From IMG/VR virus record IMGVR_UViG_2558860170_000008: 53,298 nt of DNA. One strand, written 5' to 3'. Numbering within the stretch: the first letter of the stretch is position 1; each line of letters starts with the position of its first letter. Positions 50,631-52,731 of the stretch are shown piece by piece. The notes under the pieces are model-generated. The model was not told the DNA's origin. It searched no databases and worked only from the letters and a program-made list of their open reading frames with translations. Position numbers and translations under genes: made by a program. The stretch comes from a virus (taxonomy: Duplodnaviria > Heunggongvirae > Uroviricota > Caudoviricetes).

Positions 50631-50758
50631 AGGAGCACCTCCGTTCCATGATGTAAACGTGACACAGCTTATTGTTATTGATTATTATTATCATGCTGTG
50701 GTTATGTTGTCATGCATCAGTACACTGACAAAAGTGCAAAAGAAAGGAAAACTGGCAG

Positions 50759-50956
50759 ATGAACAGAAAATATTATTTTAATAATATGTGGTGGGGATGG
50801 GTGACGGGAGGATATATGCTGTATATGTCATGGGATTATGATTTTAAATACAGATTACTGTTCTGGTGTATTTCTCTCTGCGGAATGGTTTTGTATCCGG
50901 TTGCAAAATGGTATATTGAAGATACAGCTCTGAAATTTACCCGGCCTGATTTCTAG
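50759..50956 (+). CDS. Small Trp-rich membrane peptide (65 aa) in a low-GC island
   Basis: MNRKYYFNNMWWGWVTGGYMLYMSWDYDFKYRLLFWCISLCGMVLYPVAKWY...; ATG start. Confidence 0.45.
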   Translation: MNRKYYFNNMWWGWVTGGYMLYMSWDYDFKYRLLFWCISLCGMVLYPVAKWYIEDTALKFTRPDF

Positions 50957-51076
50957 AACAGCGGTTTTTTTGCTGATACACCTGGAAAAATGGGATTGCT
51001 TGCTGTTTATACGGGTACTGTTTTCATATTATCTCTTCCGTTAAGTATGATATATATTCTTTCTGTTATTATAAAA

Positions 51077-51110
51077 AGGCTGTCTGTAAGATAGACAGCC
51101 TGTCTTATAT
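51077..51110. terminator. Hairpin AGGCTGTCT-N7-AGACAGCCT flanked by A- and T-runs; bidirectional terminator candidate
   Basis: Seen directly, immediately downstream of the minus-strand gene ending at 51112. Confidence 0.5.
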
Positions 51111-51111
51111 T

Positions 51112-51321
51112 TTATTTAAATACCCCAGAACTTATGCCACAAGAATTATCTAAAAGTTGCCGTTCTACTCCGTTAGTTTGTAGTTCTATCATAGTCTTAT
51201 TAACTCGATCACGAGGTCTGTATGACGGGGAAGCTTGCGCTGTAAGATTATATGATAATGCACATATTGTAATGATAGTTGTTTTTATCTTTGTGTTTAA
51301 TGTGAAAATTTTATAAAGCAT
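51112..51321 (-). CDS. Small secreted protein (69 aa) with Sec-type signal peptide
   Basis: MLYKIFTLNTKIKTTIITICALSYNLTAQA then a polar 39-aa mature part containing one Cys. Confidence 0.45.
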   Translation of the reverse strand: MLYKIFTLNTKIKTTIITICALSYNLTAQASPSYRPRDRVNKTMIELQTNGVERQLLDNSCGISSGVFK

Positions 51322-51353
51322 ATAATGTTCCCTATTTTTATTTTGTTTATAAT

Positions 51354-51524
51354 TTATTGGTTGTATGTTAAATCTATCATAAGTCTAATGATTAAAATGG
51401 TTAGTGGTGTCAGGATTAGTGAAAATAAAGGATGTAATATGCTATTCTTTCTCTGTAAGTACTTGAGAATACTAAACCATAGTACAAGAACGATTATGTA
51501 CATGTAGTGAGAATTGGAAAACAT
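51354..51524 (-). CDS. Small hydrophobic protein (~56 aa, two predicted membrane segments); below the ORF-track size cutoff
   Basis: My own translation of the minus strand: MFSNSHYMYIIVLVLWFSILKYLQRKNSILHPLFSLILTPLTILIIRLMIDLTYNQ; weak GGAAG Shine-Dalgarno. Confidence 0.3.
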   Translation of the reverse strand: MFSNSHYMYIIVLVLWFSILKYLQRKNSILHPLFSLILTPLTILIIRLMIDLTYNQ

Positions 51525-51811
51525 AGTTTCTTCCCGTGTTAATGAGAGTATGTGTTTTTATGTGGGGATATGTACACCCCATATAGATGTATTATGTTAT
51601 ATTTATAATATACCTCGGCAAAATAAAAGGATTGTTATAGAAATAGGGAAGCTATAAAAAAGCTTATATTAAGGTCTGTTTTCTTCTTAGAAAAATAATT
51701 CTTTGTTCTAATTATTATAGATGTAATCCCCCAAACAATAAAAAGAATGGAGCTGCTTGTAATTATTTGATATATCAAAATTGTTTTCCTCTATTTTTGT
51801 GTAGATAGATG

Positions 51812-51889
51812 TTAATGGCACTGGGTGCAATCAATTAAGAAAATTGACGCCAGACTAATTATTAATAATCCAGTTATCTTTTTATTCAT
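51812..51889 (-). CDS. 25-codon hydrophobic peptide ORF with a strong Shine-Dalgarno
   Basis: AAGGAG-N7-ATG then MNKKITGLLIISLASIFLIDCTQCH; my own translation. Confidence 0.25.
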   Translation of the reverse strand: MNKKITGLLIISLASIFLIDCTQCH

Positions 51890-52731
51890 ATCATCTCCTT
51901 TCCATTGGTTAATTTATCGGAAATTCATCCCCACTAACTAAAACGATCCACACAATAAAACTAAATCTAATTGCAGGCAATCAATTCCAGTCGATATATC
52001 ATCTGTATGGAAATCATCGCTCATCACTCATCGCAGCCTGAAAGCCCAGAGCAACGGGGCAGGTCTGCATATAAGTGGTTACACGGCAGAATTCCAGAGG
52101 GTTCTGTCACTAAATTCAGTCACTGACAAATTTGCATGATGTTGAATAGACGAGATTTTGTGTCGAAATAGTTGTTTCAGTAACTGTCACTCAATCGGTG
52201 GTTTATGTGACTATATTCGCAAAAACTGGTCGCAGAAAAGTCCTGTTTTCAGCTTGGAAACCCGGTAATCAGAATAATGGATAGGGGAACAAAAATCTCT
52301 GTATAGAACGCTCCATTGAGGGAGAGAAAACGTGTCATTTTGACCCGTTCGGTATTCAGAACACACAAAACCGATCGCGGGTCGCTTTCGTGCATAGTTA
52401 TGCAACGCGCTAAAAACGATTCTGACGCATTTTTTATGTTTACCCTGTTTTTTCTTGTCTTTTTGAGTTTTTTGCGTCAGAGAGCGTCTGAGAGGGCACG
52501 TACAACGGGAGTTATGGTAAATGGATCGGGTTTTCGGGAAGGTTCGACAGGATTTGCCGTTGGGTGTAGTGTAAGCGACTGAAAAACAAACGCCCCTGAA
52601 ATCATGTCCAGATCCGGCAGAACCAGCCTCATGCGCAGTTCTGGCTGGTTTTTGACGTTGATCGCGAGGGGGCAGCGATTGACTGGAGCGACCGGAACGC
52701 TCCCGCGCCGAACATCACCGTAAAAAATCCT

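Follow-up and report, generated by a model that had tools for sequence, protein, structure and literature searches.

The window analysed here is the complete stretch of 53,298 nucleotides (nt) of the IMG/VR virus record IMGVR_UViG_2558860170_000008, and the element under study is a low-GC block of small open reading frames (ORFs) near its right end, in which a preliminary description had seen a bacteriocin module. The block is very probably a decayed recombination scar that joins debris of three bacteriocin systems and that reached the Shigella sonnei chromosome along with cjrABC-senB. The homologies, breakpoints and inactivating lesions were observed directly, and only one small membrane-protein gene, of 56 amino acids (aa), remains intact in the block. 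The first debris stems from the colicin Ia region of an IncF plasmid, in which cia was deleted to its last codons, while imm was retained and is interrupted by an amber codon in this strain. The second is a fragment of a small Col156/ColE2-type plasmid with an operon of low GC content on intact relatives; in the window it has left 63 codons of a peptidase gene, the intact 56-aa gene and a frameshifted 58-aa gene that now reads as 47 aa. The third is a module of the colicin Js/Z type, of which a 713-bp deletion has left a 22-codon stump of a cji-like gene.

The GC content was 0.27-0.37 over about 50650-52000, compared with 0.55-0.69 in the left and 0.52-0.55 in the right flank, which bears out the low-GC block of the preliminary description. 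The ORFs listed there exist as well: 65 aa at 50759-50956 on the plus strand, and 25 aa (51812-51889), 56 aa (51354-51524) and 69 aa (51112-51321) on the minus strand. The strong Shine-Dalgarno sequence claimed for the 25-aa ORF is present as AAGGAG. Longer intact homologues exist for the 65-, 69- and 25-aa ORFs; whether any of these three is a full-length gene elsewhere was looked at, and the opposite was found. The block is better annotated as pseudogenes and relics, because three of the four small genes called in it are stumps. It had been stated beforehand that fragments of known unrelated genes would speak against a bacteriocin module. Three of the four ORFs are indeed fragments, but their source genes are bacteriocin-related. 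Searches of Pfam, NCBIfam and PADLOC with the small ORFs of the block gave nothing above threshold, and a search of 50000-53298 against Rfam at E values up to 1 gave no match.

The last 10.5 kb of the window (10,540 nt) were 100% identical to the chromosome of S. sonnei 53G (HE616528.1), where cjrA, cjrB, cjrC and senB follow just past the window end (53298; positions 10873-14962 of the chromosomal locus L016). With variations, the region is present on more than 2,100 plasmid records, mostly E. coli IncF plasmids such as pUTI89. Three structural variants, including those of the window and of the pUTI89 type, were explained as simple deletions of the form found in CP091396.1. The deletion junction of the window occurred in none of the 72,556 plasmids of PLSDB, and plasmids of the pUTI89 type lack a different, overlapping 799 bp. 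The dissection of the block shows how the cjrABC-senB island of S. sonnei was assembled: a plasmid region of the ColIa/senB type had earlier absorbed a small bacteriocin plasmid.

Colicin Ia and Col156-type segments

Window positions 49373-51135 were 97% identical to the IncF colicin Ia plasmid NZ_CP024244.1 (L008), which has an intact cia. The plasmid has the order hyp86, hyp196, DUF6404 gene (reverse), imm and cia (reverse), and this side of the window follows it up to imm. The colicin Ia immunity gene imm/iia (50759..51094, plus strand) is a pseudogene in the window, with TAG at codon 66 (50954-50956) in place of the TGG of intact alleles. The 65-aa ORF results from this change of W66 to an amber codon, and codons 67-111 are still in frame after the stop; a full-length frame of 111 aa was thus not found in the window. 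The imm region was 99% identical at the nucleotide level to imm of plasmids with intact cia. The intact 111-aa allele (CP091396.1 4160-4495) scored 31 bits against PF03526 (cut-off 25), while the 65-aa stump alone remained below the cut-off with 15.8 bits. The exact 65-aa product is named 'Colicin-Ia immunity protein [Shigella sonnei]' in databases and occurs on hundreds of contigs, mostly of S. sonnei.

A hairpin at 51077-51101 was predicted as a terminator on both strands, and its sequence is identical to that between imm and cia of the colicin Ia plasmid. A hairpin terminator had been noticed before as the end of a minus-strand operon; the hairpin stands, but it is the bidirectional terminator common to imm and cia. 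It is followed by a relic of the 3' end of cia (51116..51135, minus strand), which consists of the stop codon and the last codons for KFWGI; the C-terminus of cia in the colicin Ia plasmid reads EKANKFWGI plus stop. The window is identical to this plasmid up to 51135 and to the Col156-type plasmid NZ_LR898878.1 from 51133, so that the two segments overlap by 3 nt. The window thus resembles the colicin Ia operon (cia and imm of IncF and IncI plasmids) in the 99% identity of imm, the left flank, the intergenic hairpin and the last cia codons, terminator and codons being identical to those of a genuine cia-imm locus. It differs in the deletion of cia itself, except for about 6 codons, and in the amber codon at position 66 of imm. 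In plasmids of the pUTI89 type imm is intact, and cia is likewise absent.

The segments 51133-51829 and 52280-53255 of the window matched the 6,640-bp plasmid NZ_LR898878.1 (L006), and plasmid pSCU-387-3 (L007) matched more distantly. According to the breakpoint comparison with NZ_LR898878.1, positions 51133..51321 on the minus strand hold codons 1-63 of a periplasmic C39 peptidase gene, which encode the signal peptide as well as DNSCG, the motif of the catalytic Cys. Fused out of frame to the cia tail, these 63 codons give the '69-aa secreted protein'. In NZ_LR898878.1 (3158-3814) the gene encodes a full C39 protein of 218 aa, which begins MLHKIFTLSTKIK...QLLDNSCGISSLSY exactly as the 69-aa ORF does; full-length homologues have 213-218 aa. 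The full-length homologue matched PF03412 (C39) at 2.6e-17 over residues 53-169. Its closest NCBIfam models were FilB and FapD, and its match in the PDB was the double-glycine-motif protease 6mpz (2.3e-6). Of the complete catalytic domain, with Cys and His/Asp, the window holds residues 1-63 with Cys61 only.

On the other side of the block lies a rep remnant of the Col156/ColE2 type (52612..53256, plus strand), which matches nt 118-761 of a 927-nt gene and lacks both ends. It was 95% identical to NZ_LR898878.1 and 96% identical to pSCU-387-3. The ORF at 52732-53298, described before as a plasmid-type Rep-like gene, was confirmed as such by its matches to Pfam Replicase (3.6e-23) and PriCT_1. 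As a separate observation, rep and mob are both intact in the small Col156 replicon NZ_CP030334.1 (7,588 bp, deposited as linear), which also carries the DUF6404 gene, ColIa imm and the island of the pUTI89 type at 99.85% identity. Either a cointegrate was resolved here or the record is an artefact of assembly; it bears on how IncF and Col156 DNA were joined.

The cji-like stump and colicins Js and Z

By comparison with CP091396.1, positions 51822..51889 on the minus strand are the 5' stump of a gene of the Cji family; its roughly 22 codons specify a signal peptide and LIDC, which resembles a lipobox. The 25-aa ORF arose when 713 bp between 8-bp repeats (TGGGTGCA, 51822-51829) were deleted. 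The last codons of this ORF are supplied by the 3' relic of a toxin-like gene (51812..51829, minus strand), which encodes CTQCH plus stop and lies upstream of the frameshifted 58-aa gene. With the 713 bp restored, as in CP091396.1 (L001 5617-6012), the ORF becomes a protein of 131 aa. In the lipobox region (SIFLIDC) its Cys is aligned with LIGC of Cji and SVGC of a Serratia homologue.

The 131-aa protein was 25-27% identical to the 129-aa ORF product of plasmid pColJs (27% over 129 aa in the pairwise comparison, E 6e-15), and in a tblastn search of the whole plasmid collection this match was found at E 4e-5. A protein database search with the 131-aa protein had returned only near-identical E. 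coli copies, and it was the tblastn search against plasmids that revealed Cji. The 65-, 94- and 129-aa ORFs of pColJs are taken here to be cjl, cja and cji, an assignment based on the reported description of the locus, on the ORF lengths and on the NCBIfam match of the 94-aa product. The 129-aa ORF was reportedly described as cji, the colicin Js immunity gene, by Smajs and Weinstock in 2001.

The 129-aa ORF is convergent with cja. A similar arrangement was found in Serratia, where a lipoprotein gene whose product was 37-40% identical to the 131-aa protein (37% at E 3e-29) is convergent with a 'colicin Z family toxin'; the toxin scored 388 bits against the colicin Z family model (cut-off 300). 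Altogether, a Cji-like gene convergent with the gene of a toxin that has the colicin-Z C-terminal domain was seen three times independently: in pColJs, in a plasmid of Serratia and in one of K. pasteurii. In CP091396.1 the cji-like gene is faced by the remnant of a colicin Z family toxin, its last 18 codons, which are 82% identical to the Serratia toxin (E 3e-5). The convergent partner with the colicin-Z domain is therefore full in three plasmids, an 18-codon relic in CP091396.1 and absent from the window.

Among the PLSDB plasmids an intact cji-like gene was present in only four, including CP091396.1 (5506-6012) and pECOED (L022 5001-5396). In these four E. coli plasmids it lies about 1.7 kb from cjrABC, and S. 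sonnei and pUTI89 lost it by different deletions. The upstream (promoter) region of the gene (51890..52184) is retained in the window and occurs in CP091396.1 but not in pUTI89; promoter prediction on this region flagged no consensus promoter.

In common with the pColJs locus (cjl, cja, cji) and the colicin Z toxins, the block and its more complete relatives show low GC content, a cji-homologous gene of the lipoprotein type, a convergent toxin with the colicin-Z domain and, about 1 kb away, cjrBC, known to encode the receptor of colicins Js and Z (PMC6668396). On the other hand, the identity to Cji is only 25-27%, the toxin is left as an 18-codon relic, and only in four plasmids, and the window keeps 22 codons of the immunity gene and has no cjl homologue. 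The comparison of the block ORFs with Cjl and Cja of pColJs gave noise only. For the 65-aa ORF, which had been likened to a 65-aa release protein, the best tblastn E values against the 65-aa Cjl were 0.3-2.5, and the ORF is the truncated imm described above; the shared length is a coincidence. More generally, no ORF of the block qualified as a colicin lysis or release protein, since none resembled Cjl or matched such a family in Pfam or NCBIfam.

Colicins Js and Z enter cells via CjrC and CjrB, and all Shigella strains tested were sensitive to colicin Z (PMC6668396). It is therefore worth attention that a gene of the Cji type is physically linked to cjrABC and has been lost from S. sonnei, in agreement with the colicin Z sensitivity of all Shigella strains tested (PMC6668396).

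Two further observations concern the Cji-like proteins. In a plasmid of Serratia marcescens LY1 (L004 4923-6150) and in the K. pasteurii plasmid (L021 2435-3763), toxins of the colicin Z type are paired with Cji-like lipoproteins and not with a protein like Czi, the colicin Z immunity protein, which has four transmembrane segments and is unrelated to Cji (PMC6668396). In the published view the C-terminal domain of colicin Z is the CjrC-binding part (PMC6668396), and the pairing may bear on which toxin domain the immunity protein recognises. Secondly, Cji of pColJs (2934-3323) scored 26.7 bits against Pfam SecDF_P1_head (cut-off 27; E 5.6e-6) and gave weak matches to the NCBIfam SecD and SecDF models, which may be a hint on the fold of Cji.

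Small membrane genes and the four-gene cassette of relatives

The intact 56-aa gene (51354..51524, minus strand) encodes two hydrophobic segments and is undamaged in all variants compared. As its homologues, of 54 aa in pSCU-387-3 and 51 aa in locus L011, are located directly after toxin-like genes of a type designated group B, it is a candidate for an orphan immunity gene against proteins of this type. The 56-aa protein had no match in Pfam, NCBIfam or PADLOC. For the family the ratio of non-synonymous to synonymous substitution rates (dN/dS) was 0.14-0.25 between diverged copies (dS about 1-2). The 56-aa genes of the window and of CP091396.1 differ by one non-synonymous and no synonymous change, which is uninformative.

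The second gene, for a membrane protein of 58 aa with two hydrophobic segments (51603..51778, minus strand), carries a 1-bp deletion and reads now as a 47-aa ORF at 51635-51778. According to the alignment, the frameshift is due to one C that is missing in comparison with CP091396.1 and NZ_LR898878.1. This gene had been overlooked: the three minus-strand ORFs had been described as a compact run, a description that did not hold, as a gap of 288 nt separates the 25-aa from the 56-aa ORF and contains the frameshifted gene. The 58-aa gene is a paralogue of a 60-aa gene found after toxin-like genes designated group A, and dN/dS of the 58/60-aa family was 0.2-0.48 between diverged copies. The values for both families point to purifying selection on the minus-strand frames and mark them as real genes. 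A tblastn search with the 60-aa protein revealed no distant relatives. Hydropathy analysis gave two hydrophobic segments for each small membrane protein of the 56-, 58- and 60-aa families.

Each of the two genes of the window lies behind a remnant of a toxin-gene 3' end. The CTQCH relic is found upstream of the 58-aa gene, and a degenerate relic (GCTYPH, compared with KCTSCH plus stop) lies just upstream of the 56-aa gene, at approximately 51559..51579 on the minus strand; the latter was judged by eye against pSCU-387-3 4824-4850, without statistics. Positions 5021-5259 of CP091396.1 were 69% identical to 4419-4662 of NZ_LR898878.1, a stretch that reaches into the end of a toxin-like gene. Older toxin-immunity cassettes may have been displaced downstream, each leaving a toxin-gene 3' relic. 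This arrangement resembles the orphan toxin-immunity arrays of contact-dependent growth inhibition (CDI) and Rhs systems, in which one intact toxin gene is followed by successive small immunity-like genes, each behind a toxin 3' relic. Only the logic is alike; the two have neither protein families nor export route in common.

On intact relatives these genes belong to a cassette of four genes with about 36% GC. It consists of a gene for a protein of about 290 aa resembling an outer membrane protein (OMP), a gene for a Gly/Ala-rich toxin-like protein of about 200 aa with a Sec signal, small membrane genes (one to three on Col156 plasmids) and the gene of a stand-alone C39 peptidase with a signal peptide. 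In NZ_LR898878.1 the order on the minus strand is 291 aa (signal peptide), 203 aa (signal peptide), 60, 58 and 56 aa, followed by the 218-aa C39 peptidase. Cassettes were located at NZ_LR898878.1 3158-6104, pSCU-387-3 3988-6216, L019 6001-8310 and L020 6001-8281. Their hosts were E. coli Col156 plasmids, Salmonella, the chromosome of Serratia proteamaculans and a region of S. ureilytica resembling an integrative and conjugative element; the Serratia cassettes, with about 36% GC, lie within flanks of 48-58% GC. The products are all annotated as hypothetical, and the small ORFs were left unannotated by RefSeq in most plasmids. The producer cassette was present in 2 of the 72,556 PLSDB plasmids. 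No description of the four-gene cassette was found in the literature corpus searched by RefSeq protein accessions and with Col156, C39 and bacteriocin as terms.

The 203-aa toxin-like family formed 8 clusters at 90% identity. Its members all carry a signal peptide and the conserved sequence KIDDLEYQPHQIMTDDEMASTTGK-AIP, which is similar to a double-glycine leader. The core behind this sequence is hydrophobic, rich in Gly and Ala and variable, and the C-terminal part is again conserved. Every member ends with C-x-(Q/S/A)-C-H, the haem-c-binding CXXCH pattern, at the extreme C-terminus. In all loci inspected (about seven) the small gene directly downstream co-varies with the type of the core. 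Behind group A cores come 60- or 65-aa genes of one family, and behind group B cores the 54- or 51-aa members of the 56-aa family. A third core type (group C) precedes an unrelated 60-aa gene, and the Serratia core type precedes 47- or 48-aa genes. From these data we infer that the 56-, 58- and 60-aa proteins would be immunity proteins for the variable toxin-like proteins and that those of the window would be encoded by orphan immunity genes. In the window the 56-aa gene would at most be the one still able to act, with possible transcription that starts at the cji-like promoter and runs as far as the cia/imm hairpin.

Upstream of the cassette, at about 6105-6150 of NZ_LR898878.1 (minus strand) and about 5960-5990 of L019, a 19-mer that matches the Fur-box consensus in 17 of 19 positions overlaps with a promoter of the sigma-70 type (TTGACA-N17-TATGGC). 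This site suggests that the cassette may be repressed by iron. A LexA/SOS-box pattern was not found upstream of the cassette. The part with the promoter and the Fur-box-like site is deleted from the window.

The cassette shares with class II microcins and colicin V the C39 family, the Gly/Ala-rich core, a leader-like E-M/L-x4-G-K, C-terminal cysteines, a small membrane gene downstream and the Fur-box-like site. It differs from them in a peptidase that has its own signal peptide and is not fused to an ATP-binding cassette (ABC) exporter. Judged by sequence, the precursor also differs in its length of about 200 aa with a Sec signal and in the G-K motif, and an OMP-like gene takes the place of the CvaA/TolC route. 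The combination typical of class II microcins, a double-glycine precursor with a C39-ABC exporter and a membrane-fusion protein, was not found, as the intact cassettes contain no genes for an ABC exporter or a membrane-fusion protein. The rare four-gene cassette may represent a new Gram-negative way of bacteriocin processing and release.

The 56- and 58-aa genes could accordingly be orphan immunity genes that belong to a type of bacteriocin not yet described, with a Sec-exported precursor of about 200 aa, trimming by a stand-alone periplasmic C39 peptidase, release by an OMP-like protein, Fur control and a low-GC cassette on Col156 plasmids and Serratia islands. In addition, a Cji-type immunity gene would travel linked to cjrABC and would have been lost in S. 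sonnei. This combined proposal is tentative; it is considered possible, somewhat short of probable. Several points weigh against the explanation given here for the block. The evidence for the immunity role consists of position, co-variation and hydrophobicity, at about seven loci. The toxin-like family has no detectable outside relative, and an exhaustive profile search of 1.84 billion representative proteins yielded only the family itself, in 2 clusters at 50% identity. At the leader cleavage site proposed here the last two residues are G-K and not G-G. AlphaFold models were unusable, with pLDDT values (predicted local distance difference test) of 42.5 for the toxin-like and 32.7 for the OMP-like protein; the poor model of the latter gave a hint of all-beta secondary structure. 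Finally, the Cji-like lipobox is atypical in having Asp at position -1.

Alternative readings and flanks of the block

The block could have been kept in S. sonnei as a functional orphan-immunity island, with an expressed 56-aa gene whose product guards against group-B toxin-like proteins of competitors. The purifying selection on the 56-aa family and the intactness of the gene in all variants fit this explanation, as does its position between the retained cji-like promoter region upstream and the terminator downstream. However, the adjoining imm, 58-aa and cji-like genes have all decayed in the same lineage, the producer cassette is rare (2 of 72,556 plasmids), promoter prediction found none, and the single non-synonymous change against CP091396.1 is uninformative. 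A functional island is therefore regarded as unlikely.

A similarly low probability is given to the view that the ancestral cassette was a surface-fibre or secretion system like Fap (FapD/FapF) or Fil (FilB), or an iron- or haem-related system, and that the small genes were accessory to it without an immunity role. The nearest named relatives of the peptidase are indeed the stand-alone periplasmic C39 enzymes FilB of a pilus (3.7e-16) and FapD of an amyloid system (2.2e-8), and the combination with an OMP-like protein and a secreted Gly/Ala-rich substrate is also shared. The Fur-box-like 19-mer over the promoter in both the E. coli and the Serratia versions and the C-x-x-C-H end of all toxin-like proteins would suit an iron or haem function. 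The scores, however, were far under the equivalog cut-offs (59 vs 475 bits; 34 vs 330 bits), and the cassette has neither amyloid repeats nor a FapC-like repeat structure. Furthermore, the polymorphic core, the co-varying small membrane gene downstream and the arrays of displaced cassettes form a toxin-immunity signature, and the cassette resides on small mobilizable plasmids of the Col type. Fur control is also usual for bacteriocins such as colicin V, colicin Ia and the siderophore microcins.

The preliminary description had proposed a working bacteriocin/immunity/release or toxin-immunity module with the three minus-strand ORFs as one operon. Its bacteriocin theme was right, because the pieces are ColIa imm, a C39 peptidase gene, a Cji homologue and immunity-like small membrane genes. 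The block is also as AT-rich as the unique region of pColJs (30-39% GC), and its ORFs have Shine-Dalgarno sequences and end at a hairpin. As a working module, though, it is highly improbable: the window has no toxin gene, three of the four ORFs are truncated, the 65-aa ORF is unlike Cjl, and the hairpin is that of cia and imm. The absence of the junction from all 72,556 PLSDB plasmids marks the ORF set as a product of lineage-specific decay and not as a conserved module.

Chance frames in AT-rich spacer DNA, for which the missing Pfam, NCBIfam and PADLOC matches, the lack of RefSeq annotation in most plasmids and antisense ORFs of comparable size could be quoted, are largely refuted as an explanation of the minus-strand ORFs and have hardly any probability left, because dN/dS was 0.14-0.48 between diverged copies at saturating dS, the ORFs keep their position and order in loci of E. 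coli, Salmonella and Serratia, and stop codons are AT-rich, which makes open frames less expected in such DNA.

To the left of the block, the DUF6404 gene (50283..50630, minus strand; Pfam PF19942 at 2.1e-36) is part of the IncF colicin Ia region. The 'GC-rich operon' at 49416-50263, with ORFs of 86 and 196 aa and 63-69% GC, is a conserved ColIa flank in IncF plasmids and gave weak hints of MarR- or AbiEi-like helix-turn-helix domains. Further to the left, window positions 28300-44700 and 43000-49300 are chromosome- or prophage-like, with matches to the Ag43 region and to Mu-like phage genes. In S. sonnei 53G stacked insertion sequence elements abut a truncated phage tail gene on this side. 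The cluster of elements of the IS110, IS3 and IS66 families next to the truncated tail gene, together with the prophage-like DNA, marks the left edge of the plasmid-derived island.

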